Part shown: positions 1 through 41,045 of the stretch, in pieces
Numbering within the stretch: position 1 is the first letter of the stretch
How the letters are laid out: each line of letters starts with the position of its first letter
Source: Ginglymostoma cirratum
Lineage: Eukaryota
Direction of reading: 5' to 3'
DNA: 64,000 nucleotides
Assembly (NCBI GenBank): GCA_024137785.1
Contig: JAHRHZ010000040.1
Location: 9,184,418-9,248,417, forward strand
Made by a program: the position numbers and the translations under genes
Notes under the pieces: generated by a model
Database searches by the model: none
Told to the model about the DNA's origin: nothing
The model's input: only the letters and a program-made list of their open reading frames with translations

Positions 1-2099
1 TGACCCCTCGTTATTGAATCCCTCACCCTGGGAAAAAGCTTATCTCTATCAACCCTGTCTATACCCTTCATGATTTTGAAGACCTCAATCAGGTCCCCCC
101 TCAATCTCCTTTTTTCTAATGAAAACAATCCTAACCTACTCAACCTCTCTTCATAGCTAGCACCTTCCATACCAGGCAACATCCTCGTAAACCTTCTCTG
201 TACCCTCTCCAAAGCTTCCACATCCTTTTGGTAATGTGGCGACCAGAACTGTACACAGTATTCTAAATGCGGCCGAACCAAAGTCTTGTACAATTTTAAC
301 ATGACCTGCCAGCTCTTATACTCAATACCCCGTCCGATGAAGGCAAGCATACCATATGCCTTCTTGACCACTCTATCCACCTGTGCGGCCACCTTCAGGG
401 TACAATGGACCTGAACTCCCAGATCTCTCTGCTCATCAACTTTTCCCAAGGCTCTTCCGTTTACAGTATAGTTTGCTCTAGAATTAGACCTCCCAAAATG
501 CATCACCTCACACTTGACCGGATTGAACTCCATCTGCCACTTCTCCTCCCAACTCTCCAGTCTATCTATATTCTCCTGTATTCTTTGACAATCCCCTATG
601 CTTTCTGCTACTCCCCCAATCTTCGTGTCATCTGCAAACTTACTGATCAGACCACTTATGCCTTCTTCCAGATCATTTATGTATATCACAAACAACAGTG
701 GCCCCAGTACTGATCCCTGTGGAACACCACTGGTCACCTTTCTCCATTTCGAGAAACTTCCTTCAACTACTACTCTCTGTCTCATGTTGCTCAACCAGTT
801 CTTTATCCACCTAGCTAGAACACCCTGTACACCATGTGACTTCACTTTCTCCATTACGATGGGGAACCTTATCAAACGCCTTACTAAAGTCCATGTAGAT
901 GACATCTACAGCCCTTCCTTCATCTATCAACTTGGTCACTTCCTCAAAGAACTCTATTAAGTTAGTAAGGCATGATTTCCCCTGCACAAAACCATGTTGC
1001 ATATCACTGATAAGCCCATTCTTTTCCAAATATAAATAGATTCTATCCCTCAGTACCTTCTCCAGCAACTTTCCCACCACTGACATCAGGCTTACTGGTC
1101 TGTAGTTACCTGGAATATCCCTACTACCCTTCTTGTACAGGGGGACAACATTAGCAACTCTCCAGTCCTCCGGCACTTCACCTGTGTTTAAGGATGCTAC
1201 AAAGATATCTGTCAGGGCCCCAGCTATTTCCTCTCTCGCCTCCCTCAGCATCCTGGGATAGATCCCATCCAGTCCTGGGGATTTGTCCACCTTAATATCC
1301 TTTAGCCTACCCAACACATCTTCCCTCCTTATGTCAATGTGATCCAGAGTAAACAAACTTCTATCTCTAATCTCAACATTCATCATGTCCCTCTCCTCAG
1401 TGAACACTGATGCAAAGTAATCATTGAGAATCTCACCCATTTTCTCAGGTTCGACACAAAACCTTCCTTCCTTATCCTTTAGTGGACCAACCCTTTCTCT
1501 AGTTACCCTCCTGCTTCTTATATATGAATAAAAGGCCTTGGGATTCTCCTTAATTCTGTTGGCTAAAGTTATTTCATGACCCCTTTTAGCCCGCTTGATT
1601 CCTTGTTTAAGATTGGTCCTACTCTCCCGATATTCCTCCAAGGACCGTTCTGTTCTTAGCTGCCTGGACCTTATGTACGCTTCCCTTTTCTTCTTGGCTA
1701 GTCTCACGATTTCTCCTGTCATCCACGGTTCACGAATCTTATCTTTCCTTTCCTATCCCTTGTTTTCAAAGGGACATGCCTATCCTGCACTATCTTCAAC
1801 CTATCTTTGAAAGCCTCCCACATATCAAATGTGGACTTCCCTTCAAATAGCTGTCCCCAATCCACATTTCCCAGCTCCTGCCGAATTTTGATATAATTGG
1901 CCTTGGCCCAGTTTAGTATTCTTCCCTCAGGACCACTCTCATCTTTGTCTACGAGTATTCTAAAACTTACAGAATTGTGGTCACTATTCCCAAAGAAATC
2001 CCCCACTGTAACTTCTACCACCTGGCCTGGCTCATTCCCCAACACTAGGTCCAATATGGCCCCTTCCCTAGTTGGACTATTGACATACTGCTCTAGAAA
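1..2099 (-). mobile_element. CR1-clade LINE (HER1-like) ORF2 fragment, young, frameshifted, 5'-truncated in the endonuclease domain
   Basis: ORFs 1719..2306(-) and 811..1722(-) give FLEQYVNSPTREGAILDLVL, GNSDHN, KSPGLDGIYPR, NYRPVSL, QHGF, YMDFSKAFDKVPH; the element continues past the window start. Confidence 0.95.
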
Positions 2100-3075
2100 G
2101 GGCGTTCTCGACCACTGTGGGGGGGAAGTTGCGGTCCTTGAAGAATGAGGACATCTGAGCTGTATGGGAGTGGAATGTCTCATCCTGGGAGCAGATGCGG
2201 CGGAGGCGAAGGAATTGGGAATAGGGGATGGCATTTTTGCAGGAAGGTGGGTGGGAGGAGGTGTATTCCAGGTAGCTGTGGGAGTCAGTGGGCTTGAAAT
2301 GGACATCGGTTTCTAGGTGGTTACCCGAGATATACTGCATCCGCTGTACCTGTTGTGGCTTCCTCTACATCGGGGAAACCAAGCGGAGGCTTGGGGACCG
2401 CTTTGCAGAACACCTGCGCTCAGTTCGCAACAAACAACTGCACCTCCCAGTCGCGAACCATTTCAACTCCCCCTCCCATTCCTCAGACGACATGTCCATC
2501 CTGGGCCTCCTGCAATGCCACAGTGATGCCACCCGAAGGCTGCAGGAACAGCAAATCATATTCAGCCTGGGAACCCTGCAGCCCAATGGTATCAATGTGG
2601 ATTTCACAAGCTTCAAAATCTCCCCTTCCCCAACCGCATCCCAAAACCAGCCCAGCTCATCTCCACCTCCCTAACCTGTTTTTCCTCTCACCTATCCCCT
2701 CCTCCCACCTCAAGCCACACCCCCATCTCCTATTTACTAACATCATCCCGCCCCCTTGACCTGTCCGTCCTCCCTGGACTGACCTATCTCCTCCCTACCC
2801 CCCCCACCTACACTCACCTTTACTGGCTCCATCCCCGCCTCTTCGACTTGTCCGCCTCCTCTCCACCTATCCTCTCCTCTATCCATCCTCTATCCGCCTC
2901 CCCATCTCTCCCTATTTATTTCAGAACCCTCTTCCCCTCCCCCATTTCTGATGAAGGGTCTAGGCCCGAAACGTCAAGTTTTCCTGCTCCTATGATGCTG
3001 CTTGGCCTGCTGTGTTCATCCAGCCCCATGCTTGTTATCTCGGATTCTCCAGCATCTGCAGTACCTTTTATCTCT
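2100..3075. mobile_element. Penelope-like element with 5' inversion: RT C-terminal part on minus (2100-2331), GIY-YIG plus tail on plus (2331-3075)
   Basis: Minus: TDVHFKPTDSHSYLEYTSSHPPSCKNAIPYSQFLRLRRICS. Plus: IYCIRC...YIGETKRRLGDRFAEH...LGTLQPNGIN, then a pyrimidine-rich tract and the conserved tail. Confidence 0.92.
2944..2979 (+). ncRNA. Minimal type-I hammerhead ribozyme motif, intact core
   Basis: attt-CTGATGA-A-GGG(tctagg)CCC-GAA-ACGT-C-aagt: conserved core, 3-bp stem II, palindromic ACGT stem III, 4-bp stem I; predicted cleavage after C2975. Confidence 0.75.
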
Positions 3076-6059
3076 GATACAATTACTAAACTGTTTTTGG
3101 TTTTCTTCATTAGGCTGACCCAATGACAAGTCAGTGTTTTAAGTGTGTTGTATAACTTGTTCATTGCATTATGAGGTCATCTACTAATGAAAACAAATGT
3201 CATAGGTCTCCTGATATTTGGGTACAACTTGTGCCCAGATTTACAGCTGGTCGCATCGGGCTGCTCAAGATCCCATAAGGCACATTGAAAGCCTCTGAAG
3301 TGTGACCAATATGTTTTAGCACAGTAGGAGCCTACCATCAGACTGGGAAAACCAGGCATTTTTCTATAGCCCATAAGGGGGTCTCATATTTGATATTTGT
3401 CTGTGCTTGGATATTTGATCTCTGCGGGAACATTTGTGATGCAACTAGTTTCTGTTTCCTGAGGTTACAGAAAATAAAATTCAGCCAGGTTTCTCATTTG
3501 CGATTACTATGTCTTGATCCTAGCACGTTCAACATTCATAAAACTTATTCTTAAATTGCCTTTGGACAGAGAGTGATGAGGAGAAAAGATTGCCATCAAA
3601 ATCTCAGATCATTAGCTTTTTCCAAACTTGGCTGATCTCTCCTTAAAACGTTTGGTTTATTCAAACTGTCAGTTTGCATCCTGTCTCAAAGCAAGATCCA
3701 CTTGGCTAATGCCCCTGTCTTTGTCATTTGTTAATGGCTCCCTTCAGCCCTAAATGACCCTTACGGAAACTAGAAATAGGCAATAAATGGAGGCCTTGGT
3801 TAAGGAGCAGAAGATGCTAGTAATATGCAGTAGTTCTGAATTAAATGTCCAGGGCTAGTTAGAGAGTTCATTCAGGGTGGAACAAGGCTGTAGAGGTATG
3901 AAAACAAAGGTAAAGATTTCAAATTCAACATCATGGACATGGGAAGTCACTGGAGCTTGGGAAGGATGGATATGAAGATTGTATGTGATTTTGGATAGAA
4001 AGGAGCAGTAGCAATTTTGAATAGTTGAAGTATCTGTTGTGCAGGGCCAAAGACATATAAAGAATAGACACAAGAACTCACCTCACAAGATTATGAATCT
4101 GTGCCATATCTTTGGATTTCTTGCAGTGGGAAGAAGATCACCCATGAGTAACATTATGAAAGTGAAAATTTGGGCCTAGCAACAGACTGGTAATAGGGTA
4201 TTGTACAAGTTGGCAAATTGTATACCATATGGCAAGCCATGCAATAAGCTGTGCTTTGCATCTCCGCTATCATTCTCTAACCTTTCTGCTGTCGGTTCTC
4301 TGTCTTAAATGAGCTACGATTCTTTCCAGCTAAACAATCAACATCATTGGTTGGTTAATTTGGTAAACAGGTGAAAACAAGATCGAAATATGTGCAGTAT
4401 AAACATGTTTGTTTTAATAGCTGGTTTTAGCACATAAAGTTCTCCCTAATTGCTGATTATTATAATTTGAATTTGTCTGGGGATGTTCAAAGAGATTTCT
4501 GCAGGTTTAGCAATGAACTGCTGATCAGATCATTTTTTTCTATGGAGCGGTAAATGTGTGATCCCCACATTCACTTCCACTGACCGTGCAGCATCTGAAA
4601 TATTGTAGAAACTTTCAGGATTCCTTTCGGACTGAACAAGGGGGCGTAGTGGACATAGCACTATATATCCTGAGGATGACCTGACAAATGTCCTATCGAT
4701 GTGATGATGTGGGAAGGGGGAGAAGCAGTCCTCTTCACCCTCCTGCTCCTCCCCCTTGTAGCAGCTGGTGCTGATCCACCCATGGCCTCCTACCATTCCT
4801 CTTGCACAACAAGGGCGCCCTCTACAGCGAATTATAGGTGACTCCAATTAGTTAGAATAGTACGGCACTCATTCACTTCAGATTAAATCCTGAAAGTATT
4901 TTCAGAACAAAACTCATTAAAGTCTTTACAAAGTATTCCAGAACGTCTCCCAATCTCTTCCAAACATTTTGTTTTCCCAAACTCCAGCAGCAAAAGAATA
5001 GAAAGATCAAATATCTTGACATAATATTTGAAATTCTCAGAAGTTATTATTTTGCATGTGTTAAACTGGTTGCAGTGAAGAGAGATTAAGTGCTATCCAA
5101 ACAAGAAAATGGTGTGCCTTTTCTTGAATAAGCATTGGTAGGAAGTTAAATGTCAGTCAGCCCTTCAGCAAACCTTGGGGCCTCTATTGGTACCAGCTTC
5201 AACTTTCCCTACTAAGGCAGCAACTTTTGCCAAAACTGGGATTAACTGGTATTTCAGCAATCTACAATTTCTCAGACAGGAATTCAGCTGGTGTGAAATG
5301 TTAGCAAACTGCCATTTGTACCACTCCTTGACTGATTATAACGGTTTCAGATGTTGTGTTTCAGTTCCCATGGAATCAGAAATGAAGTTTGGTACATAAT
5401 TTGTATGGTCAAAAGGCAGATCGTTGAATTTCACTTGAATAAGCTGTAGTCTCACTAGAAAATTTGTACTTGCATTCAACAATATACTGTGTAGTATACA
5501 TTAGTTAATCTTATAGTTATTTTCAGCTGTGATTGGGTTTATCCTGATATAGTTTCAGCCTGACCTACTTTAAACAAAGGCAATTCTTTGAAAATTGTTT
5601 GGCTTATCTTGATGCCTAGAATGGCCACGGATTTAACAGAAGAAATAGATCTGTCGTTGAAGCATTAAATACAAAATTGAATTGTAATAATCATGAAATG
5701 TTGACAATCCTCCAGGTACAACAGGACTCCAATTTGCTGTACAACTGAGCACATAAAGAAACTGATTCCAGGAGTAGTTCTGAAGCAGAGAGATGGTGAG
5801 CACTCCATCTGGGCTACTGACATCCAATACCATACAGATGGCTTGGAAAATTCTTTTGGTGACTTGTAACTTATACCCCAAACAAAAAATTATTTTTGGA
5901 GGAGATGATGCACTGTTTTAAACCAAAAATGTTATTCATTCTCATTCTTCAAGTTGTTTTATATTTATTGGTACACAATTTTATATAAATAAATTACAAC
6001 ACACAAATACTCATAACTGTACTAACAATCTCAAAATCAAATTAGCTGAAAATTTCTAT

Positions 6060-6760
6060 GAGTAGAATTTAATATTTTTGGCCAATGTGAAGTTTGCTGG
6101 AGGAGGCATTTAACCAGGCAAAAGTCACAGGGATGGCTTTCCCACCCTACTGCCAATTGAATGCCTTAAGTGGGGATTTAATATTTTAATAAAGGGCTCC
6201 ATCCTGCCACTGGTGGTATTAAACCAAACAGCAAGAGGCCGACGCCATGGGAAATATGACAAAGGATACCTTACAGGGTTGTAGTCTTGTTCAAAGACAC
6301 TGTGTCTGACAGAGGGACCTGGCGTCAAGAAGTGGCGGTGGTGTAGGATCGGCGTGCCATTCCTTTGTCCTAGCTACTGAATCCTTCATTTCCAAGATAC
6401 CGACCTCATGATTCTCCTGTCATTATTACTGTGGCCTGGAGCATTGACACTGGGTCTTGAGTGAGTGTAGAACCAGCAGCAGCCACCATATACCTGGTGG
6501 CGCTGCTGTTCAACCCAAGCTGCCAGTCTCTGATTAGCTAACAGTTTTTGATGGGTAGAACTTCTGCCTTTGGTTCCTTGATCCTGGGAAAGATTTGCTG
6601 CTGACCAGTTAAGAGCCTGAATGGTACTTACTTGAGTAGACAGTTGCCAATGCTCTTCCACTGGTGGGTGAGATGACAGTTCCTTCTATTAGATCCAGCA
6701 CTGTATGATAAGGAGTCCATGCCCCTTCTGACAGGGGTACACTTTACTTCTCTAAGTCTA
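6060..6760. repeat. Degenerate interspersed repeat, probably a non-autonomous DNA transposon (Harbinger-like); related copies at about 7520-8200, 39170-39490 and 40110-40730
   Basis: Locally GC-richer blocks sharing recurrent motifs (ccaattgaNNccttaag, ctgccNNNctctgattgg); family assignment is from recall only. Confidence 0.35.
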
Positions 6761-7925
6761 ACAAGTTGAGGTACAAATTGGCAAGTGTGGAAAAGTTGGA
6801 TTTAGAGACACCTGTAAGTATACAGAATAGTACTAGAGTTTAACCTATTAAAACCATGAGACTTACTGGGTTCTGAATAATTATTTCAATGGCTACTCTT
6901 GAGATTTTCTCAAGAGCTACTTTTTAATTTTCAAGGACTACGTTTTTGTCTTTATTCTCACCAGCTGCTGTTTCAGACGATGCAGTTATACAGTACCATT
7001 ACTTTCTGCATTTGTGTTACTTTTTTGGGGGTGTTTCTTCCTTTGAAAGATAAGATAGCACAAATATTGAAGATTTCATACATACAATATATTTTAGTAA
7101 ATTTTTTAACTTGGGAATCTATAAATGTGTTTTGTTAATTCATTGTAAACGAGTCTTCCATCCTCTGGATCTTTCTGTGCATTCACCAAAATAGATAGTT
7201 GTTAAATTTATGTAAAAATGATGTAATATTAATCCTGATTTTCCACGAATCATGAAACTAGTAAAGATATAATTTGAAAATAGCTTCCTGAAAAAAAAAT
7301 TGTAAAAATTGAGTGTAGAATGCCAACTGTCATTTAGGGAATTGATTTGTAAATTATCTACAACTTTGTCTTCTGTGCCTCTACCCATAGAAAATATTTA
7401 AGACCCTGATTCCCTCCCATTTATGAAAAGTTATTTTGTGTGGCCTCTCCTCTCAGCCTATTGAGTAAAACAAGTGGTTATAAGTTCCAATAAATTTGGA
7501 CAGCAATGGATAAAGTTACATGATGAGCAAGCATTGAGGAACCTACTTTCCCAATCATTTGTGAAACAACAGATACCGGTGTCTGGCTGTTTGCTCATTC
7601 CTATCTCCACCCCTGGGCTCTGTGCCCCACCCCCCCACTCAGCCAACATTTGGACTCTGGTCCCTTCCTCACTCCCCCAAGGTGCAACTCAGTCTCGACC
7701 CCGATGGGTACTCAGCATGGTGAATAGCCACTGCTTCGCTGGCATGAAATTCTCCTGCAAAGTGGCCCATATCTCTGATACAATTACCAGAGTAGTTTCT
7801 CCAGCTATGTCTATTCTTTCTCCCCAGCTTTTTGCTTCTCCAATCACAGATTCTGTCTCCGCAAGATTCAGAGGGAGGGAATCTGTGATGGGTGGAGCTA
7901 GAGCAACCTGCATTGGAGAGATAGA

Positions 7926-8018
7926 AGAGATAATAGGAACTGCAGATGCTGGAGAATCTGAGATAACAAGGTGTGGAGCTGGATGAACACAGCAGGCCAA
8001 GCATCATCATAGGAGCAG
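7926..8018 (-). mobile_element. Short PLE tail fragment
   Basis: Reverse complement of the tail at about 2984-3075 (ctgcagatgctggagaatctgagataacaag...). Confidence 0.85.
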
Positions 8019-8859
8019 CTCTGATTGGACGGGCAGCTGCTTACAGATGTACATGAATGTCTTTTGTGGGCATTTTCAGGGGCAAATTCGTTTGCTGCCA
8101 CCATGCATTTTGAACTTTGCAGCTTACCCTGTAGTGCACCCATTCCTGCACAAACACCCAGCATCAGTCTGCCCATTAAGACATGGTTTATAACATGGTT
8201 ATCAACAACTATACGTAAAGAATCCCAACCGTAGTGACTGTACTGGCTGGTCATGGTCCTGGTCACAGTGATCTTTCCTGGCTCTCAGGTATCAGATTGG
8301 TGCACGTGTCAAAGAGAAATGAATTTCAGCCATGGCCTCTGGATATGTAGTTTTGCCTAGAGATCAAAAAAAGCCTTTTCAACTGTTTACTGTTTGCTAA
8401 GACCATTTCTGGGTGCAAAAGGGTCAGGTTCCACCTGAACAGGACTGGACAAGTATCACTACGGGGAGTTTCATTGGTGTTGTTTGGGATTGTCGGAATG
8501 GGGTATCATGAGAAGGGAGTTGTATCATATTACATAGAAATGGATTGAGAAGGATGATAAATACAAAGGCAAGTTCACAAGGCATGTGTGTAAATGCACA
8601 AGAGCATGGTGAATAAAGTTGTCAGTTAAATGCACAAACAGCCATGCTATCGTGGCAATGACAAAAATGTGGCTTAAAATGACGACAGCTGTGTGAAAAA
8701 ATATCAAAAAAAAAAGGCATGGGAAACTAGGAGGTGATTGAGCTTGGAGGGATTGATTAGGGAAGCCATTGCAATGTTGGAAAGAGAGATGTCCTTTTGG
8801 GGGCAAGGACAGAGTTTTTTTGGCTAGAGTTGCAAAGCAAAAAGTATATGATCACACTA

Positions 8860-9880
8860 TGAGGGATATTCTGTAGATCTCCATATCATGAAAGATGGAG
8901 GAGCATATCTGCAGGGAAATCACAGATGTGCAAAAGCAAAAATGTTTTGGGGACTTTAATTACCTGAATATTGCTTGGGATGATGCCATTTGAATAGTGT
9001 GTAAAGAGGAGGAGGAATTTTGTTCCTGGCCTAACAGTAAAGGAGGCATTGGAGATAACAAGCATGGGGCTGGATGAACACAGCAGGTCAAGCAGCATCA
9101 TAGGAGCAGGAAACCTTGACGTTTCGGGCCTAAACCCTTCATCAGAAATGGGGGAGGGGAAGAGGGTTCTGAAATAAATAGGGAGAGAGGGGGAGGCGGA
9201 TAGAGGAGGGATAGAGGAGAGGATAGGTGGAGAGGAGGCAGACAAGTCGAAGAGGCGGGGATGGAGCCAGTAAAGGTGAGTGTAGGTAGGGGGGTAGGGA
9301 GGAGATAGGTCAGTCCAGGGAGGACGGACAGGTCAAGGGGGCGGGATGATGTTAGGAGATGGGGGTGTGGCTTGAGGTGAGAGGAAAAACAGGTTAGGGA
9401 GGTGGAGATGAGCTGGGCTGGTTTTTGCTGGATCTGAAGCTGAAGAATGTCCAGGTGCTTGTAAGGGAACATTTGCTTCAAGTGATCAGTGAATTCTAAA
9501 ATTTAGATTATTAGGGGAGAAGAACACGGGTCAATCTAAATTAGAACATCTAAACTGGAAAAGGATCAACTTAAATGGTATGACAAAGGATCTGGCCAAA
9601 GCAAATGGAATCCAAGACCTACAGGAAGAACAGTAATGAAATAGTGTGAGCCTCAAGCTGGAGATGCTTAAGGTACATGTTAAATATATTGCAACAAGCA
9701 TGAAAGGCAAGGGAATCAATGTTTTGGGTGATGAGAAAAATAGAGAAAATTCTGAAGCACTTCGCATAAACTCTTCATGTTCGGACCAGGCCGAATACAA
9801 CAGGTTGAAAGTGGAAGTGAAGAGAAAAATAACACAGCAAAGAGATAACATGATAATAGGGTAAAACCCCCAAATCTTCT
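8860..9880 (+). mobile_element. Degenerate CR1-clade LINE fragment, interrupted by a PLE tail
   Basis: Remnant gggactttaattacc (GDFNY); aaggaggcattg|ctggatctg (EALLDL) is split by the insert at 9052-9427. Confidence 0.65.
9052..9427 (-). mobile_element. PLE 3' tail (pLTR-like) with intact hammerhead motif at 9114-9149
   Basis: Near-identical reverse complement of about 2640-3042; the minus strand reads catttCTGATGAAGGGtttaggCCCGAAACGTCaagg. Confidence 0.9.
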
Positions 9881-9889
9881 AGGAATGCA

Positions 9890-10767
9890 CAGTTCAGACA
9901 ACATCAGACAGAGTATTTGCGATACATGGACTCCCGGAAGTATTGTTCACAGATAACGGGCCATCGTTTACCAGCAGGGAATTTGAGTATTTTCTTAAGT
10001 TGAATAGTTTTTGACATATAAGGACAGATCCATACCATCCATCATCCAATGATGTGGCAGAGAGCACTCCAAACTTTGAAGGCTTAAAGAGATAGTCTGC
10101 AGCTTCACTAGATGCTGAACTGTCCTGGTTCCTATTTGATTATAGGACCACCCCTCATGCAACTACACAGTTGCTAACAGGCTACAAACACCACACCATC
10201 TGATCTTCACAGATGTGCAGGGGGAGGATGAAGCAGCATTAGGAACACCAATGGTGGACATAAGACTCTGCTAAGCAAGAGAGACAGATACTTCAGAGGA
10301 CAAAGTTTGGTGTAGGAACCACAGGAATGGCCCTGCATGGGTAAAAAGCATGGTCGACGTGAGGTCAGGTCCAGTGATGTATAAAGTTCAAGTAGGAGCG
10401 ACAATCCAGAACAAGCACATGGACCTAATGAAAGCTGCAAACTCACAAATGGTAAGGAAGCAAAACATGTCGAGCTCCTCAACAGCCCCTCTGACTGTTC
10501 TGAGTAGGTTCTCCCTCTCTGTCAAGCATTGAAGGTACCTCGGAATCTGAGATGGACACAGCAGATGTTGTTGCCTCGATGTCTTTGCCACCTGAAGAGA
10601 ATGAATTTCTTCTGAGATATTCCAGGCACAAGTGGTGAGCTACTGTATGTTACACACCACTTGTACCAGAGGCACAGTCGGTGGAAACTGACCCAGTGCT
10701 AAAACATCCCAGGAGAAGCTACAAAAAAGAGAACTGACCTATGTCTTTGGACCCACAGGAGAAAGGA
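9890..10767 (+). mobile_element. Ty3/Gypsy LTR retrotransposon remnant: integrase core and polypurine tract
   Basis: Reads RVFAIHGLPEVLFTDNGPSFTSREFEYFLK...HIRTDPYHPSSN with stops and frameshifts; purine tract aggagaaagga at 10757-10767. Confidence 0.85.
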
Positions 10768-10989
10768 TGTAGTGATTGTAATGAGATTAGCCAGGTCGAT
10801 CTCATAAATATGAGTTCCCTGATTGGGGCTGTTAATCTGGTCCAATCAGGGAGCCCTGGCTGACAGATAAAAGCAGGAATATTAGACATCCTATTCACTT
10901 TGAGGGAGCTAGATCAGTGTCAATGACTTTCCACGTGTAAATAAAAGGTGACTTGGTGATGGGAGACAGGCCTCTGTGGAGTTATTTCA
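10768..10989 (+). mobile_element. 3' LTR of the Gypsy element (222 bp)
   Basis: Starts TGT directly after the PPT and ends TCA; contains inverted CCAAT boxes, a TATA-like gataaaag and AATAAA. Confidence 0.75.
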
Positions 10990-11229
10990 TTTAGGATGGG
11001 CTGCAAATGCTACTCTAGCCAGCAACATCCACATCCTGTAAATTAATAACTTAAAACAGAAAATACTTTGTATCTATGCTTTTCAGGAATAGGATACTGA
11101 CAAAGTTATGGGGGTATAGACAAGGTGAATAGCAAGGGTTTTTTTCCCTTGGGTGAGGGAGTTTAAAACTAAGGGGCATATTTTTTAGGTGAGTATTGAA
11201 AGTTTTTGAAAGGACATGAGGGGCAAGAG

Positions 11230-12770
11230 TTGGCCCAGTAATCTTGGCAATCAGGGACACCATCCAAATGCAGAGGAAGGAACAGAAGCACCAATCAAGT
11301 CTGTGAGACCTAATGGCCCTCATTACCTTGAAGCTGCATCAGTGCAAAGAATTTTGCGTCTGTCTATCTTCATGGACAGGAGCATGTTGGCTGCTTTGGT
11401 AAGTCAGACCCAGTATCCTCAGGGCATGCTGAGGATGCTGATAGACTTGTACTCCATTGCACCACTCATTATTCCTCAGGACCGAAGGTATGGCAACAGG
11501 GTAGCGCGAAACATTGACCCCACTGCCGGTTCTCTTCCACATTCAAGGAGACAGTACAGTACTGGGAGGCACACATTGGTGGATGAACCACACACACCCG
11601 CCTGCAAAGTCTCCTCAGGACACTGCAGATGTGGCTAGGACTCCCACCTCCCTGCCCACCTCTGACTCGTGGACATTCAGGCTCAGGAGGATCAACTTGT
11701 CCGTCGAGATCCAAGCGTCCCTGGGGCCACCCGATCAAACTTGCAGGGCTATCAGGTTCTGTTGCCGAACAAGCTCCCTTCACTCCAGCTACGGAACAAG
11801 GGAGTACACCAGGATGAGGTAGGAGGGACTGGAAGAAGAAAACTTATTTAGGGCACTTGGGTGGCACAGGTGACAATGGTTTGTACATGTTTCTCAGGTT
11901 ATGGAGTGTAATACAGAAACAGAAGTTCAATACCGTATGATGTCCCTGGGTAAGGCAGTCTCCATGTCTGTGTCCTGTACAGAGCATCAATCTGAGATCA
12001 AAGTTCTTTCCCCTTTTAAAGCCCTGTGTTCAGAGTTAGCTGAATTTCCTTCCCTTGCAAGTTGAGTTACTTATCCCACTCACTGTATGTTCGCAGCCAT
12101 TTTCTTCACCATTTCACATTTTGAATTTGCATCACAATAGAAGGCAAGTGTGTGCTCCTGTGCCAGTGGTTTCCAGCCTCAGCCTGAATGTGTCACTGAG
12201 CCCCCAGACATTCACAATCCCTCCTTTAGGCTTCACATTATCCTGAGTCCCCACTCAATCCATTTAAACAGATCTATATCTGCTCACCTCCACCGCGCCC
12301 GCCCCCACCCGCAGCCCCGGTATATGAAGTGAGCCAGCCCACCATGGTCATTCACTGCCTCCCAGTTCCTTGAAGCCAGGGTTCTCCTGACCATGCAGGT
12401 TCCTCCCCCTCCTTTCTAAGCCATGTTTTACAATATGCCCTTAGCCCCTTGCAGATACTCTTCCCCCTTCACAATTGTACTCTACCCTTCACCAGACCCT
12501 GAAGACTCCAATCCCAAAGGTCAACCTGCCGAGAATCAATCCCATGGCTATGGTTGCCCTTGACGCCACCAAGTTCCCACTTTCCTCTTATTTTCTATGG
12601 ATGGAGCCAATGGATTGACCGTGTCCTACTCTGACCAACCTGACTTGATTGTCCTGACTCGTGTCTATATTTTGACACTCCTACCCCTCCCTCTGGACTG
12701 TCAGCTGTGAAGCCAAAGGAATGACCCTGACTCACTCTCTGGACTGCAGAGGCACACATAGCCATCCTGA
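11230..12770. mobile_element. Possible degenerate Harbinger-type DNA transposon remnant
   Basis: GC-elevated block with broken ORFs; the minus strand near 12410-12437 reads IL*NMA*KG, similar to the transposase C-terminal LHN motif. Weak. Confidence 0.3.
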
Positions 12771-12779
12771 GTGAAAATA

Positions 12780-13099
12780 AGCAGCAGTTATTGCCCATCC
12801 CTAATTGCCCAGAGGGCAGTTAAGTATCGACCACATTGCTCTGGGTCTGGAGTCACATGTAGGTCAGACCAGGTAAGGATGGCAGTTTCCTTCCCTAAAG
12901 AACATTAGTGAACCAGATGGGTTTTTCCAACAATTGACAATGGATTCATTAAAAAAATAGACTCTTAACTCCAGATTTTTTTTATTGATTTCAAATTTCA
13001 TCATCTGCTGTACTGGGATTCGAACCCAGGTCCACAGATCATTATCTGGATCTCAAGATTAACAGTCTAGCCTTAATACCACTAGACCATCACCTCCCT
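12780..13099 (-). mobile_element. tRNA-derived SINE (MER131/MetaSINE-like core, LINE-type 3' tail)
   Basis: B-box gggttcgaatccc on minus near 13015-13028; core catctggttcactaatgttctttagggaaggaaac...; tail gggcaattagggatgggcaataa. Related copies at about 22950-23100(-), 24830-25180(+), 51180-51270(-), 51540-51900(-), 54810-55030(-). Confidence 0.75.
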
Positions 13100-13500
13100 C
13101 AGAAAATTGTGAGGGGTGGAGATACAGAAGATAGGAGAAACCTGTTTCCCTTTGCAGAGAGTTAAAAAAAGAGTCATAGATTCAAGCTAAGTGGCAGAAG
13201 GATTGGAGAGGAAGTGAGGAAGAACTTTTTAATGCAGAGGGTCATGGGTGTCTGGAATACATTGCTTGAGATGGAGGCAGAGACCAAAGCTGTTCCAAAA
13301 AGTACCTAATTGTGCACCTTAAGTGCTGTAAGCTGCAGGTCCAAGTGCCATGTGCAAGAAGATGGGATTTTAAACTAATTCTTTGTGGGATGAGGGTGTC
13401 ACTGCCTAGGCCACAAAGGGCATCTGGTTGTCTTTGTGACGGCATGGACAAGATGGACTGAATGGATCCCTTCTCTGCTGTATCATTTCTACAGTTCTAC
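13100..13500 (+). mobile_element. CR1-clade LINE 3' end
   Basis: Remnant ORF2 C-terminus (aactttttaatgcagaggg...tggaatac) followed by the 3' UTR tail ggcatggacaagatggactgaatgg...ctgctgtatc. Confidence 0.8.
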
Positions 13501-14080
13501 GGTTTGGAGAGATAAGGTAACCCTATCAATGTGATTCTGGATAACATTTTGGAGTTAGGCACTCTTGGTGAGGGAAAAGTCCGTGCTGCTCCTGGTAGGG
13601 GGACTGGTAGAGTTAAGTAACCTGACAGGAGCAGCAGATATCCTAGGGTGATGGTAGTTATGTATTCTTTGGGATTATTAACAGTAGAGAAAGTTGTGTC
13701 TGAACACTTTGGAGCTGTAAAGCTGTGAAAGGCTTGTAAAACATATTAATAACTGTCAAGAAATGTCAAATCTATTAACAACTGTCAGTTTTTATTTCAT
13801 GAATGAAAGTGGTCTACTACACAGAACTTTAAAGAATAGTTTTCCTCCTGTGCACATGGTACCAGTAGATACAAGGTGAATTGGGACAGTAAATAAAGAG
13901 GAAAGGATGGTAGGTGGAAGTATGCACTAAGTTGGCATAGAGGGTAACAGGAATCATGGGGATGGATGGACGGCATTGGGTACTATGTCTTGGCATGGAT
14001 GAGCAGGGAGGAATGTCTAGGGGTGAAAGGCAGTGAGGAAATGTGAAGATAGAGAGCTGGAGAGATACTTTGTTTTATTA

Positions 14081-15608
14081 TAACAAGGTGTAGAGCTGGA
14101 TGAACACAACAGGCCAAGCAGCATCAGAGGAGCAGGAAAGCTGACATTTCAGGTCTGGACCCTTCTTCAGAAATGGGGAAGGGGAAGGGGACACAAATAA
14201 ATAGAGGGGGAGGTGATGATGGAAGGTGGATAGAGGAGCAGATAGGTGGAGAGAAGACAGACAGATGGGGATGGAGCCAGTAAAGGTGAGTGTAAGTAGG
14301 GAGTTGGGATGGGGTTGGTCAGTTGGGAGGGAGGGGTGGGCAGGAGGGAGGTAAGACGGACAGGTCAAGGAGGCAGGGATGAGGCTAGTAGGTAGGACGT
14401 GGGGGTGAATGGGGGTTGGTCAGTGAGGTGGGAAGAGCGGATAGGTGGGAGAAAAGATGGACAGGTCAAGGAGGCAAGGATGAGCTGTGCTGGTCTTGGG
14501 ATGGGGGTGGGGAGATTTTGAAGCTTGTGAAGTCCACATTGATACCATTGGGCTGCAGGGTTCCCAAGCGAAGTATGACGTGCTGTTTCTCCAGCCTTCA
14601 GGTGGCATCATTGTGGCACTGGAGGAGGCCTAGGATGGACATGTCGTCCAAAGAATGGGAGGGGGAGGTGAAGTGGTTTGCGACTGGGAGGTGCAGTCGT
14701 TTGTCACGAACCGAGTGTAGGTGTTCTACAAAGTGGTTTCCAAGCCTCCGCTTGGTTTCCCCGATGTAGGGGCCACATTGGGAACAGCGAATACAATATA
14801 CCACATTAGCAGATGTGCATGTGAACATCTGTTTAATGTGGAAGGTTTTCTTGGGGCCTGGGATGGGGGTGAGGGGTGAGGTGTAGCGGCACGTGTAGCA
14901 TTTCCTGCGGTTGCAGAGAAAGTGCCAGGGGTGGTGGGGCTAGTGGGGAGTGTCGAGTGGACAAGGGAGTCACGGAGAGAGTGGTCCCTCCGGAAGGCAG
15001 ATAAGGGTGGGGAGGGAAAACGTCCTTGGTAGTGGAGTCAGATTGCAGGTGGCGGAAGGGGCGGAGGATGATGTGTTGGATTCGGAGGTTGGTGGGGTGG
15101 TGTGTGAGGACGAGGGGGGTTCTGTCTTTGTTGTTATTGCGGGGATGGGGCGTGAGGGATGAGTTGCGGGAAATGCGTGAGATGCGGTCGAGGGTGTTTT
15201 CAACCACTGTGTAGGGGAAATTGCTGTGGTTGAAAAATGAGGACATCTGGGATGTGCGGGAGTGGAATGCCTCATCTTGGGAGCAGATGCGGTGGAGGCG
15301 AAGGCATTGGGAATACGGGAAGGCATTCTTGCAGGAAGGTGGGTGGGAGGAGGAGTATTCTAGGTAGCTGTGGGAGTCAGTAGGCTTGAAATAAGTATCA
15401 GTTTCCAGGTGGTTGCCAGAGATGGAAACAGAGAGGTCCAGGAAGGAGAGAGAGGTATCGGACATGGTCCAGGTGAACTTAAGGTTGGGGTGGAAGGTGT
15501 TAGTAAAGTGGATGAACTGTTCGAGCTCCTCGTGGGAGCACGAGGGGGTGCCGATATAGTCATCGATATAACGGAGGAAGAGGTGGGGGATGGGGGCAGT
15601 GTAGCTGC
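14081..15608 (-). mobile_element. Penelope-like element, 1.5 kb, 5'-truncated (RT C-terminus, GIY-YIG, tail), perfect 11-bp TSD
   Basis: FLRYIDDYIG...FLDLSV...YFKPTDSHSYL (14833..15696-); VVYCIRC...YIGETKRRLG (14598..14828-); TSD ttgttttatta at 14070-14080 and 15609-15619; decayed hammerhead at about 14139-14174. Confidence 0.95.
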
Positions 15609-16499
15609 TTGTTTTATTACTTTCTTTTAATTTTGCACACAGTACCCAGCCCTTCCTCAGCACTTCCTGGGTTGCTTGGCCTGACTTCCGATTCATCTTG
15701 GATCCCCAGATTAAAAATGAAAAGTGTGAGCGGCCATTTTAAAGTACTATTCTGTGGAGCTCACATTTCTCCCACCTCTACACACCTATGCCAGAAGTAA
15801 AAGTCAGAACCACTAAGCTACAGTGGTGGCACTAATAATCCCCTACACATACTTGTAAGAAGTCACCAAATTTTTATTATGTGATAGAAAAGGTAAATCA
15901 GAGCCCCAGATTTTCATTTATGTATATAAATAGATTAGAATGGTTAATATGGGAAGCATATTTTAGATTAATGCCAATAAGATAGTAAATACAATGGGTG
16001 AGAATGTAAATAATTGTAAAAGAGCTTAAAAAAAAACCAAAACAAGAGCAGATAATAATGTGTGCATAGTTCAATGTAATACATTCTGAACCTATGAATA
16101 CCAAATGTGTGAATTTCTTTAGTCAAATTTGCATCCCTTCCTGTTATAGTACCAAAACGCCTCTTACCAAAATCATAATTAAAATCCTGTGAGACTGTGA
16201 TAAAGAAGAACTATCTTGCATCACCCTGGCTGTAGCATTCCATGTAACTGATCACACAATTTTCTGTCAATGCCTCTCTCTTATTGTCTGGCTGGGCAGG
16301 AGTACCGTCACTTACATCATAGGAGCAGAAATCCTCATGTGTTGAAGAGAAATATTTGGGAGCTGAATATAAGAAGAGATCGAACTGTGGAGCCAAATGG
16401 AGTAAAAAGCTGTTTAAGATTCAGTATTGTGTGATGAGACAGAGAAATCATTCATCTCATAGTAAAAGATCCTCTGGGAAATAAGCAATGACACAATTT

Positions 16500-18351: not shown

Positions 18352-18522
18352 TCACAGAATCCCTACAGTGTGGAAACAGGCCCTTCGGCCCAACAAGTCC
18401 ACACCGAACCTCAGAGCATCCCACCCAGACCCACCACCCCCCCCCAACAACCCACCTAACCTACACCACCCTGAACACTACGGGCAATTTAGCATGGCCA
18501 ATCCACCTAACCTGCACATCTG
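18352..18522 (-). mobile_element. HE1-like V-SINE, 5'-truncated
   Basis: atccctacagtgtggaaacaggcccttcggccc...gggcaatttagcatggccaatccacctaacctgcacatc; same family as 52659-52990. Confidence 0.85.
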
Positions 18523-19299
18523 TGCTTGGCTGTCCATGGAGAGGGAGCATGTGGTATACCCCAGCATGATAGAGGCCTTTTGGGCACCACAGAGGCTGGG
18601 GTGCATCATCACCCCGGTTAATGTTCCCTTACATAAGTGTCTGCTAACTGTTAGTTTGTAGTTTTGTAACAGAGCCCCATTATAGGGGATGTTTAACCCA
18701 ATTTTGTAAATTTAAAGTTTAAAAGGTAGAAGTTTGCCTCGCTGCCTGGTCAATACATAAAAGATGCAGCGAATTGCTCCTGATGTTGAGATACTGGATA
18801 TCTCACACAATTCTGCCACAAATCTCATCATTGCCTGATGGTTCAGGCCCCTAAGACTCTGCCCATTGTTTCTGTTGGGATCTTTACAATTCTACGTTTC
18901 TCACATAAATCCATTCATTTTTTGTGAAAAAAATGTAAATAGAACTCCTTAGTAACAATTAATTGTTAAGAAGGTTGGACAACAAAAACAAGCCAGCAAA
19001 GCTCCAAATATGTCACCAATCTGGGTCAAGTTATCTGATCTCAGCCATTGCAGTTAGTTGGGTAATACAACCACACTCAGCATGGAGAGGGGATAAGTCA
19101 ACCAATGTGTCCATTTGTGACTGATATTGAAACGGAATTAGGCTAATTTAAGTACTCCAAAGTCTCAGTCTGAATCACAAACTGGCAGCCCAAATCTCCA
19201 TAGATCCATCACTTCCATTTGGTTCAAGTGTGCTGACCAACAAATGGGTATTTTTTCATCCCCACAATCTCTGAACTATGAATCTTATGTTCCCTTACC

Positions 19300-19695
19300 T
19301 TTCAAAAGTCGGTTTATCATGGTGTTCTGAGACTTTGTTGGATCCACCTGCACCAAAAACAAATGTCTGTGTTTTTCTCAAAGCTAGCTCTACAAGCATT
19401 CAGGCAAAACTTCTGCAAAATCAACCATGAAGGGCAGCTGAAAAACATCTGCTCTGCCAAATCCTGTAACTCAACCCTCAAATGGCCAGCGTTTTGGGGG
19501 GAGGAAGCATACAAAAACACACCAAAGACACAATGAAGTACTACTTGAATTATAACAGCATTGACATTAATGACTGGGTTGTGCTTTCTGCCATTGATTC
19601 AAAATGCCAACAACTTGCTTATCAATCTGCATCATGCTGAGTCTAAATGCCTTAATCATGAAGCAGGACAGCAGCAAAGAAGATAAGAAAGCAAA
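19300..19695 (+). mobile_element. RTE-clade LINE 3' remnant
   Basis: Decayed equivalents of SIQAKLLQNQ, LPNPV and KDTMKYYL...IDINDW, resembling an RTE ORF C-terminus. Confidence 0.5.
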
Positions 19696-19809
19696 TCTGA
19701 AGAAGTCATCTTGGAATCAAAACATTAATTCTATTTCTCTCTTTACTAATGCTGTTCGACTTGCTGAGTTTCTCCAGCATTTTGTTTTTATTTCAGATTA
19801 GAAATATTT

Positions 19810-22235: not shown

Positions 22236-22382
22236 AAAAAAAAAAGTGGACGCTGAAAGACAGAAACAAAACCAGAAACTAGTAGGAAAACTCAGTAGGT
22301 CTGGCAGTGTTCCGAAGAAGGGTCACTAGACCTGAAAGGTTAACTCTGCTTTCTCTCCACAGATGCTGCCAGACCAGCTGAG
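22236..22382. mobile_element. Mini inverted PLE-tail element with decayed hammerhead, 11-bp TSD
   Basis: Minus-oriented tail 22236-22309 joined to a plus-oriented piece starting ttccgaagaagggtcactagacctgaaaggttaact; TSD gttacagattg/gttacaaattg at 22225-22235 and 22383-22393. Confidence 0.75.
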
Positions 22383-23564
22383 GTTACAAATTGTGTTGGC
22401 TGTACAATTCTGCTGCTGCTGTTGATTGCCCATGGTGGCTCATTCATGCTCAGTTTTGAACTGCTAGATCTATTCAAAGTCTGTCCCATTTAGCACAGGG
22501 ATAGTGCCAAAAACACACACAGTAAAAAAAAAGTGAATCCTGGTGAAGATGAAGTCAAGATTTTCTCCTTCTTGTTGATATTTCATTATCTGTTACAGAT
22601 CCAGTTTTAGTAGCTACATTCTTTGGGAGTTGGTCAGCAATGGTTTCACCAAGTTACTCTTGTGAAGGACATCCATAGTACATTCTGTGCCTTTCCCACC
22701 CTCAGTACATCCTCCAAGTGGGTTCAGCAAAGGGGGCTGGAAGGTTGCAATCAGCAGTTGATTAGCTGTAAGGTATGATTCTGTGAGAATGAGGGTATTA
22801 GGCTGCTTGACTACAGTGTGGGACATCTCTCAGATGTTGGGAAGGAGGACTTTGCAAAGATGACACGTTTGTATTTGCTGTTGGCCTTTGTGTTGCCAGG
22901 ATGGATGCTGGGTGGACTACACAACATCATTCCTTTGTAGCTGCTTGATACAACTGAGTGTCTTGCTAGACCATTTCTGACAGCAGTTAAGAACCAATCA
23001 CATTGCTTTGGGTCTGGAATCACATGTTGACATGACAAGCTAAAAATGGCAGATCTCCTTCCCTAAAGGACATTAATGAAACAGTTGTCAGTTTTTATAA
23101 TCAAATGAAAGCAAAATACTATGAGGTTTGAAGATCTGAAATTAAAACAAACTACTAAAGACTTAACAAGTCTGGCAGCATCTGTAGAGACATACAGAGT
23201 TAATGTTTCAAGACCAATATAGTTTTTCTTTGGAATTCACAGGTTTCTCTGTCATTTCCTGTTTTAAATAATGGGCCATACTTGTTTGATTAGTAAGCGG
23301 AAACATTTCTGCACATCTTTCCTCTAAGATTTTTACAAAACAAATAGCTTGAAACTTGAGTACCTAATAGTTGAAATAGCACCTGATTATTATTGATTTT
23401 AACTTGTGAAAACTTTTGAAATGAAACGACACCTCCAAGAACCAATAATAAAAAATAAATGTTTGCAGACCTCTCATGGCAAGTTTCACACCCAGTATGC
23501 CCTTTCAATGCTGACATTTTTGTGCTTCACTGCTGACAGACACTGCATACAGGACAAAATAACT

Positions 23565-24829: not shown

Positions 24830-25180
24830 GATGAACAGTAATTTTGTGGTAAAGTCACTGGATTAGCAATCCAGAGGCTAATGCTCTGTGGACATTCCAC
24901 CATGGTAATTTAACTACTAAATCTAAAACAGAAAAAAGTCTTAGTAAAGTGTGACCTCGAAAATTATCATTGATCATCATAAAGAACAGATTTGGCACAG
25001 TGAGGTTCTTTACGGAAGGAAATCTGTCATCTTTACCTGGTCTGGTCAAGTGGTTCCAGACCCAGTAATTGACTCTTAACTGCTCTCTGAAAGGGTGTAG
25101 CAAGCCACTCAGTTCAAGGATGATTAGGGATCGGAAACAAAGTTAGCCTTCCCAGAATCCTATGAAAGAAAAAAAAAAGG
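24830..25180 (+). mobile_element. tRNA-derived SINE, same family as 12780-13099
   Basis: Core ggaaggaaatctgtcatctttacctggtctgg...gactcttaactgctctctgaaa...caagccactcagttcaagg, followed by an A-rich tail. Confidence 0.75.
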
Positions 25181-29359: not shown

Positions 29360-30790
29360 GCAATTCAAGATTTAGTCTCAGGAAATGAAGCTGGGCAGGT
29401 GGACAAAGTGACAGTGAGTTTTTAGGAGACAGCGATCATAATACAGCTAGATTTAGCATCAATGTGAAAAAGACAAAAGATAAAACACGAGTAAAAGTGT
29501 GAAGTTCACCTTCATCAAATTTAGAAAAGTTGATAGATGATCTGGCAAAAATGGACTGATTACAGTCACCTGAAGAAAAGTCAATGGTAAAACAGTGGGA
29601 GGCATTAAAAAGTGAAATTCTGAGGCACAGCGTAGATATGTCTCCACCAAGATAAAGGATGGTACTGCTAAGTCTAGAGTCCCCTGGCAAGATTAGGTAG
29701 GAAAATTGAGCTTATGACAACTTCAGAAAAGTAACACTTCGGGAAACTTAGAGGAACATGGAAAGTATAGGATTAATGTGGAAAAGGAAATTAGGGAAGC
29801 AAAGAGAAGACATGGGAAAATACAGGCCTGTAAATTTAAGGAAATTCCGAAGAAGTTTTATCAGCTTAAGAGCAAGAAGATGATCAAGGAACAAAACAAA
29901 TACAGAAACTTCTGGAAAAGCTCAGGAGATCCGACAGCATCTGTGGAGAAAAATCAGAGTTAACGTTTCGGGGAGTGTGGTAAGTTGGATCCAAAATTGG
30001 TTCAGTTAAAGGTTGATATTTCTTTTTTGACTGGAAACTTATTGTCAGTGCTATTCCACAGGGCTCAAAGTTGGGTATCCTGCTGTTTATTAACAATATA
30101 GACTTAGATGTAGGAGGCAAGTCTAGAAAATTTGCAGACAACACTAAAATTGCCTGGATAGTTGGCAGTGAGAAAGATGCTGTCGAATGTTGAAGATGAT
30201 TTAAGTATTAATAATTTTGTTGAGCAGGCAGAAAAGTGGCAAATGGAATACAACCTGAAAAAGTCCCACTTTCTGGGGAGGAATACACAACAAATGTTAG
30301 AGTATTAACAGAGGTAGAGATAGTGAGAGATCTAGGTTCCTGAAGAGGGCAGGACAGGTGGATAAGTTGGTAGAGAACGTAATTGGGATTGTTTCCTTAA
30401 TTGGTCAAAGTATTGAATACTAAAGCATGAATATAGTGCCAGAATTAAACAAGAGGCACTGGTTAAACCCTAAGTGGAGTTGTGTGTGGAGTTCTACATT
30501 ACAGGAAAAACTTAATTGCTTTAGAGAGAGTGCAAAGGACATTGACAAGACTGTAGCCTGGGCTTTAAAAACTGCAGATGTGAGGAAAGAACTCAGAGAA
30601 TCACAGAGTCCCTGCTGTGTGCAAGCAGGCCATCAAGTCAACACCAATGCTCCAAAGAGCATCCCACCCAGACTCGGCCCCCCTACCCTATTACTGTAAC
30701 ACTGCATGTCCCATAGCTAATCCACTTAATCTGCACATCTTTGGACTGGATAGAGTAGGGTTGCTTTCCTTAGAACAGAAGAAGCTGAGG
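29360..30790 (+). mobile_element. Degenerate CR1-clade LINE with nested PLE-tail (about 29890-29972, -) and HE1-like (about 30595-30750, -) inserts
   Basis: Remnants GDSDH, QWEALKSEI, IPQGSKLG and KFADNTKI. Confidence 0.75.
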
Positions 30791-31193: not shown

Positions 31194-32577
31194 TTGATGT
31201 GAAGGTGCCAGTGTTTGACTGGCATGGACAAGGTCAGAAGGCATACAACACCACGTTATAGTCCAACAGGTTTATTTGAAATCATAAGCTTTCGGAGCAC
31301 TGTTCCTATCTCAGGTGGAGTGAAGAGAAACACACAAGTACATAGTTTATAGGCAGAGGGATCAAAAGATCATACAAATGGTGTGAGTGGAGTGTCAACA
31401 GGCTGAATAGCAAATGAAGGGATGACCTATAATCCAATTAACTGAGGCAGAAAGACAATTACAAAACATTAAAAATTAAAAATAAGGTGGCTTTAGAAAT
31501 AAACCAAATGGCTAGAATAACATGATAGGTATAAGAGTCACATGCTGAGGGTCTAACCAAAGTAACAAGCAACCCAAACTGTACAAACTAATTAAGGTGG
31601 AGAGATCACAACAAGTTATCAAGGTGATAGTGTCAAGATTTCACAGATACAAAACAGTATGGTGAGGTTACATATATTGTGACATGAACCCCAGATCACG
31701 GTAGAGGCCATTTTCATGGGTACGGAACTAGGCTATCAATTTCTGCATGGCAATTCTGCATTGATGTATATCTCCAGGGCTGCCTTGGAGGATGCTTAGC
31801 CGAAAATCAGACGCTGAATGTCTTTGACCGCTGAAGTGTCCCCCAACTGGGAGGGAACATTCTTGTTTGGCGATTCTTGTGCAGTGTTCATTCATCCATT
31901 GCTGTACTGTCTGCATGGTCCCGCCAATATACCATGCCTTGGGGCATCATTGCTTGCAGCATATAAGGTAGACGATATTGGCCGAGTCGCATGAGTATCT
32001 GTCATGTACGTGGTGGGTGGTGTTCTCACATGTGATGGTAGTATCCACGTTGATGATCTGGAATGTCATAGCAAGGTTGTGTGGTGTTGTGGTCCATGTT
32101 ATCCTGAAGGCTGGGTAGTTGCTATGAACAATGGTCTGTTTAAGGTTTGGCAGTTGTTTGAAGGTGAGAAGTGGAGATGTACAGATGATCTTGGCGAAAT
32201 GTTCGCCGTCATCAATGACATTTTGAAGGTTGTGAAGAAAATGGCGTAGTTTCTCTGCCCCGGGGAGAATTTTAACTTTTAACTTTTTTTTTTGTAATTA
32301 TTTCACTGCTTCAATTAGTTGGATTATAGGTCATCCCTGCACTGGTTATTCAGCTGTTGACACCCTACTGACACTTTTGATCACCTGCAGAGTCTTATTA
32401 TTCAGCCTGCTGATACTCCACTGACACCATCTGTATGATTGTTTGATCTCTCTGCCTATAAATTACGTTGCTGTGTGCTTCTCTTCACTCCACCTGATGA
32501 AGGAGCCGTGCTCCAAAAGCTTGTGATTTCAAGTAAACCTGTTGGACTGTAACCTGGTGTCATGTGACTTCTGACCT
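31194..32577 (-). mobile_element. Second Penelope-like family: GIY-YIG-containing body on minus, inverted copy of the tail at about 32270-32577
   Basis: Minus strand reads CDSANIVYLICCKQ*CPKAWYIGGTMQT...H...LPVGGHF; 31230-31330 is the reverse complement of 32480-32577; hammerhead motifs at 31283-31317(-) and 32491-32525(+). Confidence 0.88.
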
Positions 32578-39982: not shown

Positions 39983-40829
39983 CTAAATGGCATTTGAAAA
40001 TATTCTCTTAGCGTTATACAAAAAGATATTGTGACACATACTTTACTTCATCTGAAATATAATAAAAACTATTGCACAGATTTTAAATACTACATTACAA
40101 GTGAGATTATCCCCTCCCTGGAGGCAGAGAGGGATATTTTGAGAAAGCCAAATAACAGGGTATATTGGTCCTACAGAAATACTCGCAGACCCTCTTGCCA
40201 CCTCAACAATTAAGTGCTGGGCAAGAAGTTTCACTGGGGACTGTCTCAACCTGCTATCAATTAAGGCCTTTTTAAGAGTTCAAATCATTGCTACCCAAGG
40301 CCTCAACTCACCATCAGCCCAATTACCTGTTTTTCTAGTCGGTAATAAAAGAAACTTGCTAACATGGTTTGGGTTGGAAGGATCTCCATTGTCCCAATAT
40401 ACTACAGGAATGAGGAAGCAAGGAGGTGGCTGCTGAAGATATACCCCCTACCCTTGCCTCTGACCCTGCCGCTCTCAAAGTAAACAACATACCTTCCTAC
40501 CATTCGAAACTCTGAAGTCTGTACCTCCAGATACAATATCTAGGAGAAAGAAGCAGACAGCTGGTTTGTTGACAGCTTCTGGTAGGGGCGGGATTTCACT
40601 ATCAAGGCTCATGATTTGCAGAGAAGCCCACCAATCAGATCTTTAGCTGTGAGCTCTCTTATTAGTGGGGAGTCAGTCTCTCCAGAAGACGATTACCCCT
40701 ATAGAAATCTCGACCTAAAATTTATCTTTGGATTAGGGAGTGTTTTTAATAAAATTAAAAAAAATACATAATAGCTAGTTGACATCGTAATAGACTACTT
40801 TGCATTTTTGATTAATGTAATTGAATAGA

Positions 40830-41045
40830 GAATCATAGAATAATAAAATCCCTACAGTGTGGAAGCAGGCCATTTGGCCCATCAGGTCTACATTGCCCCT
40901 CCAAAGAGCACCCCACCCAGATCCATCCCTCTACTCTATCCCTGTAACCCTGCATTTCCCATGGCTAATCCACCTAGCCTGCACATCTCTGGAGACCATG
41001 GGCAATTTAGCATGACCTAATCCACCTAACCTGCACATCTTTGGA
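40830..41045 (-). mobile_element. HE1-like V-SINE, truncated, with an internal duplication
   Basis: atccctacagtgtggaagcaggcc... and two copies of aatccacctaNcctgcacatct. Confidence 0.85.

Follow-up and report, generated by a model that had tools for sequence, protein, structure and literature searches.

Minimal hammerhead motifs in PLE relics of a Ginglymostoma cirratum contig

The 64,000-nucleotide stretch of Ginglymostoma cirratum DNA analyzed here (hereafter the window) carries hammerhead motifs of three families, A, B, and C. We conclude with considerable confidence that these copies are minimal type-I hammerheads located in the pseudo-LTRs (pLTRs) of cartilaginous-fish Penelope-like retroelements (PLEs), that the truncated relics now present are likely inert, and that their parent elements likely cleaved only as protein-assisted dimers. 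This explanation is best supported because the motifs are enriched over shuffled sequence, fit a published consensus, accompany RT and GIY-YIG remnants, decay at CpG sites, and have kept their helix pairing. This motif has already been published together with the extra A and the palindrome; the window adds family members in a shark, mostly dead copies, and as a catalogue entry this matters little.

A strict descriptor (CUGANGA, 0–1 extra nucleotide, helix II of at least 3 bp, GAAA-NN-U-H, and helix I of at least 3 bp) matched three sites in the window, with C3 at 2948(+), 9145(−), and 34840(−), and gave a mean of 0.03 and a maximum of 1 in 200 dinucleotide shuffles. When one core mismatch was allowed, five sites were found vs 0.27 in 60 shuffles. 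Ten copies were then scored by core anchoring, with helix pairs read from the same anchoring, and every site listed in an earlier note on this DNA was recovered where that note had placed it. The probability that these are chance matches to a loose pattern is practically negligible. An Rfam scan of the window returned no hammerhead family among its seven matches at E≤10, and three metagenome hits to a similar pattern (L006, L008, and L012) resemble bacterial coding DNA, as chance would allow; however, three strict sites stand against 0.03 expected, their placement after PLE ORFs is fixed, and the published consensus is fitted. We consider chance refuted by the shuffle enrichment together with the PLE ORF remnants upstream.

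The family A motif at 2944–2979(+) has an intact core (C3=2948, H17=C2975), helices I and II of 4 bp each, and the palindrome ACGT, and its cut is predicted between 2975 and 2976 from the descriptor and core scoring. It belongs to a 5'-truncated PLE copy at 2099–3085(+), with a tail end near 3075–3085, which includes an inverted RT-thumb piece (2099–2331) and a GIY-YIG remnant (2330–2620(+); PF01541, E 3e-5), then the pLTR; the motif lies ~330 nt downstream of the GIY-YIG remnant. A second intact core is found at 9114–9149, with a 3-bp helix I, in a pLTR copy at 9052–9425(−). The longest family A remnant (14080–15720(−)) is frameshifted and retains the C-terminal half of the RT, a C-x4-C-x2-C linker, and GIY-YIG, along with a decayed hammerhead at 14139–14174(−) (C11.1U, ATGT). 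The remaining family A copies are a short one at 44430–44561(+), where homology begins 2 nt before C3 (C11.1A, G12A, ATGT), a 3' end copy at 55139–55660(+) with a hammerhead at 55560–55595 carrying G12A, and a tail alone at 7926–8018(−), which begins 9 nt past the cut site. Family A ends fall into two classes 35–45 nt apart (3038–3044 vs 3075–3085 equivalents), resembling the optional PLE tail.

Family B is represented by short pieces, two of them head-to-head units, and none has an ORF remnant within the window. One unit (22246–22385) joins an inverted tail at 22246–22307(−) to the hammerhead copy 22309(+) (U4C, AGGT). The other (34742–34990) is a pair about 15 bp apart, 34840(−) (core intact, ACAT, helix I of 5 bp) and 34864(+) (C3G, ACGT), both starting 4–5 nt before C3. 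A partial copy at 29895–29972(−) comprises the 3' half of a hammerhead and the tail, and older, more decayed family B-like pieces lie at 19689–19799(+), 23157–23216(−), and 63583–63643. Family C consists of a 5'-truncated PLE remnant at 31231–32577(−), which has a GIY-YIG-like frame at 31740–32297(−) with one stop, a pLTR hammerhead at 31283–31317(−) with a broken 5' core, and an inverted pLTR copy at 32277–32577(+) whose hammerhead (32491–32525) carries G12A. Both family C pLTRs share the same end base.

Among the 48 protein matches of the 14080–15720 remnant, the best is from whale shark (82%), and the next, at 63–70%, are from other sharks (zebra shark and bamboo shark) and a ray. Family A has a CX2-5CxxC linker before its C-terminal GIY-YIG, read as CNRRKCYTC in frame 14598–14939(−) and also seen in P0001. 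According to the accessible part of PMC8557442, a C-x4-C-x2-C type linker is absent from Penelope/Poseidon and common to Neptune and Nematis, hence the family A protein sequence points to Neptune or Nematis and not to Poseidon; in the family C copy the linker region is decayed. The earlier note had assigned all three families to PLEs with minimal type-I hammerheads, which stands for families A and C, with their ORF remnants upstream, while family B is tied to PLEs only via its A-like tail. A full-length two-pLTR element was not found within the 64-kb window. The inverted 5' pieces and the two 3'-end classes agree with the inverted copies and optional tail of PLEs, as described in the same part of PMC8557442.

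Decay is widespread among the ten scored copies. The full CUGANGA plus GAAA..UH core is found in three (2948(+), 9145(−), and 34840(−)), the remainder having one or two changes, and only 2948(+) and 9145(−) combine it with a 4-nt palindrome. As previously noted, all ten copies carry an additional A between A9 and G10.1, with an ambiguous register in 31314(−). The accompanying claim that stem III is always a palindrome did not hold: a palindrome is present in six of the ten, the others reading ATGT, ATGT, AGGT, and ACAT, and three of these four exceptions are CpG transitions. Where it occurs, the palindrome at 15.2–16.2 stands without a helix III stem. The consensus strings proposed for families B and C proved to be composites, as in no copy of either does an intact core occur together with the palindrome: 22312(+) carries U4C, 34864(+) C3G, 32494(+) G12A, and 31314(−) G8A/A9U, while 34840(−) has an intact core with ACAT in place of the palindrome. 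Helix I measures 2–5 bp over the scored copies, vs ~6 bp plus loop contacts in canonical type I, and is just 2 bp plus a mismatch in three of five family A copies. The G10.1-C11.1 pair is G-C in five copies, G-U in four, and mismatched in one, and the C11.1-G12 CpG is changed in seven of ten, in six of these via a single transition. In family A, differences fall in 0 of 55 core cells outside CpG and in 20 of 290 tail cells, a sample too small to separate selection from drift. This CpG-centred decay fits the decay of methylated repeats.

Helix pairing across families was evaluated next to the relatedness of their tails. The A and B tails are homologous (score 49, matched by 0 of 2000 shuffles) and helix II is nearly identical in these two families, so that double-sided changes are mainly those of family C vs A/B: helix I pairs 1–3 and helix II pairs 3–4, with a different palindrome as well. 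The earlier proposal that stems differ in sequence between families yet remain paired was thus partly borne out, since double-sided changes are present, although A and B are not independent. A covariance model (R1) built from seven A/B copies gave 22 window matches at E≤1, plus 14 metagenome loci, and did not recover family C at that threshold. In the R1 alignment of shark A/B and non-shark families, which is model-fitted, leaves out family C, and has two rows of doubtful standing (window 11604 and L009), 89.5% of 114 cells are paired, double changes occur in seven of eight pairs, and the covariation score is matched by 0 of 500 shuffles; slid controls all showed much lower pairing. Compensatory changes across families are present and supported by this alignment, but they come from few independent lineages. 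The A and B tails (2995–3057 and 34914–34978) share a beginning, GATGCTG, an ATG, and a conserved but weak hairpin (−3.9 kcal/mol); this shared tail could be an ORF start or an RT-binding element.

Fourteen loci came from a pattern scan of metagenomes, and blastn showed no similarity between any of them and the window. Seven (L001, L003, L004, L007, L010, L011, and L013) form an unrelated PLE family, young and not from sharks, in which the minimal hammerhead is intact and its fold is the predicted minimum; a GIY-YIG remnant lies upstream in L011, and several head-to-head copies start at helix I. Another two (L002 and L005) are hammerhead-like, and the other five were set aside as probable chance. 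Within L005, positions 1519–1719 hold two differing minimal hammerheads, one on each strand and separated by 100 bp. A scan of viral contigs yielded two loci, in one of which (L015, 601–632) a hammerhead-like core is directly followed by a motif resembling a ribosome-binding site and an ATG.

The closest published counterpart is the min-HHR consensus of metazoan PLE pLTRs (Cervera & De la Peña 2014, PMC4209133, Fig. S3), whose hallmarks, in the portion of that paper available, are an extra nucleotide, G10.1-C11.1, and the palindrome, and for which monomers are reported as uncleaved and dimers as weakly cleaved. The window copies resemble it in their core, extra nucleotide at 9/10.1, G10.1-C11.1 pair, palindrome without a helix III stem, and short helix I, as well as in their placement after RT-EN, many solo copies, and opposite-strand pairs. 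They differ in the weak helix I of family A (2–4 bp, A-U/G-U only) and its short helix II (4 bp). Cartilaginous fish are absent from the rows of Fig. S3 and Table S1 in the available material of that study. A second parallel is the Anolis Poseidon element PAc, for which the accessible sections of Frangieh et al. 2024 (PMC11167929) describe a protein needed for cleavage and cleavage as dispensable for insertion; shared features are the pLTR hammerhead, an uncut RNA that acts as template, the lack of RNA-seq ends at the cut, and an optional tail. Unlike Poseidon, family A has the C-x4-C-x2-C linker and is in this respect Neptune-like.

It had been suggested that the copies at 2944 and 9114 have intact cores and may still cleave. 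The cores are intact, but folding predictions leave the inference of cleavage weak. In both monomers the core is predicted to pair with the cleavage-site strand at −9.3 kcal/mol, whereas the hammerhead fold reaches −4.0 and −2.6 kcal/mol, respectively, in energy models that disregard core tertiary contacts, and the predicted probability of helix I is ~0.02 or less. The two intact copies are therefore predicted to misfold as monomers. For comparison, the predicted minimum is the hammerhead fold in 34840(−) and in the unrelated L011 motif. Partners for dimerization are distant: the two copies lie on opposite strands, and their nearest same-strand family A partners, both decayed, are 41.5 kb (2944) and 5.0 kb (9114) away.

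Transcript evidence came from four RNA-seq runs of one species mapped to 2300–3200 at 88% likeness. One poly(A), unstranded run (X21) gave 62,696 reads from the whole of family A, in ~24% of the run. No pile-up of RNA ends, at the cut site or elsewhere, was listed in any of the four runs; as a test of cleavage this is weak, given a threshold of one fifth of local depth and a fragmented unstranded library in which decayed family A copies dilute any signal. No run has any depth past 3105, on the 3' flank of the 2944 copy. A read break at 2980–2981 was rejected as a cleavage boundary, as 4,671 loose ends carry the hammerhead of a sister subfamily and the break reflects an indel in the alignment. 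A strand-switch joint at 2949/2970 was likewise set aside as a possible library fold-back; it is formed by 486 X21 reads, is absent from the other three runs, and spans the predicted core-sequestering hairpin.

These data bear on whether the 2944 and 9114 copies are active in the host and cut passing transcripts by forming trans-dimers with abundant family A RNAs, which we regard as quite unlikely. Every conserved core base is present in both copies and partners exist, family A RNA being abundant in the poly(A) library. Against such activity, the core-sequestering fold is predicted to be favoured by 5–7 kcal/mol, the two-strand hammerhead is modelled at −5.1 vs −33.8 kcal/mol for the best mis-paired dimer, and neither the missing end pile-up nor the zero depth on the 3' flank of 2944 matches it. 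In addition, one of nine Xenopus dimer elements cleaved in vitro, according to the accessible part of a preprint (bioRxiv 10.64898/2026.07.22.740005).

We favour instead a model in which cleavage belonged to the parent elements. The pLTR would most likely drive transcription of the parent element. In an RNA carrying two pLTRs, helix III could form between the two ACGU (or AGCU) 4-mers and allow a cut after H17, probably aided by the element's protein. RNAs with one hammerhead would remain uncut and serve as templates for short and head-to-head insertions, the head-to-head pairs presumably arising through priming on both strands, as the Anolis protein extends both strands. Inserted copies would then decay.

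Where copies begin offers a record of these templates. Short and head-to-head copies begin 2–7 nt before the core, ~30 nt past a TATA-like box; the window copies 44430(+), 22309(+), 34840(−), and 34864(+) have their first base no more than ~5 nt from C3, and the other six scored copies run far upstream. Among the pieces listed, no start falls on the cut site, and tail-only pieces begin at least 8–9 nt beyond it. These copies keep the hammerhead at their 5' end, and therefore their templates were uncut. In RNA, X21 depth climbs from 3,310 at 2930 to 13,720 at 2960, a step to which different upstream sequence in sister subfamilies could contribute, and a pile-up of RNA ends at 2944 was not seen either. 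Among the 12 opposite-strand X21 joints listed (with 278 further), seven, with 599 of 1,307 reads between them, have a side within 2941–2945, and among eight listed X17 contig rows (48 further) five join back to 2943–2947, two with a single G between. In the metagenome PLE family, whose loci were preselected for an intact core, four of seven are head-to-head with copy starts at −3 to −6, two extend further, and one is at a contig end; two of its junctions lie on a 6-bp palindrome, which alone could cause fold-back.

Upstream of this boundary, putative promoter boxes lie at similar distances in families A and C: TATTTAT at 2913–2919(+) and TATAAAT at 32457–32463(+). An initiator-like A follows 31 nt later in the first case (2944, −4) and 30 nt later in the second (32487, 7 nt upstream of C3). 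TATA-like/initiator pairs at such spacing occur 19 times in 128,000 window positions, in a post hoc test on pyrimidine-rich sequence. The pattern is missed by 44432(+) and 31314(−), and the unrelated metagenome family has a TATA-like box at −37/−38 without an initiator match at the boundary. We tentatively suggest that the RNA of Neptune-like PLEs, driven by a TATA-type promoter, begins with the opening base of helix I, such that the hammerhead is transcribed first, which we consider possible though doubtful. A capped leader of ~32 nt would then be lost on cleavage, which would work as a decapping switch gated by protein and dimer formation. Short pLTR transcripts with a single hammerhead could not dimerize in cis and would stay capped and uncut; copied in trans, these RNAs would yield the very abundant SINE-like solo and head-to-head insertions. 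If true, this would give the PLE ribozyme a concrete, testable role, and the high copy number in sharks is a natural record of template 5' ends. Literature searches on a start site at the hammerhead and on shark PLE hammerheads, with most subscription journals outside their coverage, turned up no paper that describes the helix I boundary. In Drosophila virilis Penelope, the accessible part of Schostak et al. 2008 (PMC2377424) describes an internal TATA-less promoter and an intron 46 bp past the start, ending at helix I. Transcription would similarly start in the pLTR upstream of the hammerhead here, but with a TATA-like box 30–31 nt before the inferred start, itself 4–7 nt upstream of C3.

Since copies begin at helix I with the site uncut, the motif might instead be kept for a non-catalytic role, as a structure at the 5' end of the RNA that is promoter-proximal or binds protein, with cleavage incidental. 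Two published systems, seen in the available parts of the reports, are compatible with this: the Anolis PLE inserts in vitro without need of cleavage (PMC11167929), and Naiad PLEs spread without canonical hammerheads (PMC8557442). We nevertheless judge such a role unlikely, given that unrelated families share all the catalytic bases as well as the dimer palindrome; the dimer model also leaves one-hammerhead RNAs uncut, so uncut 5' ends do not distinguish between the two. Another possibility is that the copies represent non-LTR retrozymes of the canonical type, in which tandem repeats are processed to circles. Both groups comprise non-autonomous pLTR-like units with type I hammerheads (accessible parts of PMC7229834 and bioRxiv 10.64898/2026.07.22.740005), the latter source includes retrozymes from one chondrichthyan, and the X17 contig joints run from tail positions back to 2943–2947, some of them in tandem. 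Yet these joints return to the start of helix I, whereas a ligated circle requires the cut site, and the copies lack a helix III stem or long helix I. Retrozymes are described in the same sources as tandem arrays, whereas window copies are minimal and solo or inverted, with no direct tandem array in the window, which makes a retrozyme origin very improbable.

Other repeats surround these PLE relics. The family A element at 2099 adjoins the upstream end of a non-LTR retrotransposon RT remnant (PF00078) at 1–2098(−), which we take to be CR1-like, and similar pieces lie at 36794–37972, 43620–43955, and 60444–60964. A dispersed short repeat is found at 12816–13090, 22952–23087, 24982–25114, 51187–51260, 51695–51805, and 54878–54985; a weak tRNA-like match in its sequence at 13012–13090(−) suggests a tRNA-derived SINE, and ARAGORN found no tRNA. 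A second dispersed repeat of ~190 bp, at 70–75% identity, occupies 18352–18524, 30588–30745, 40829–41045, and 52655–52848.
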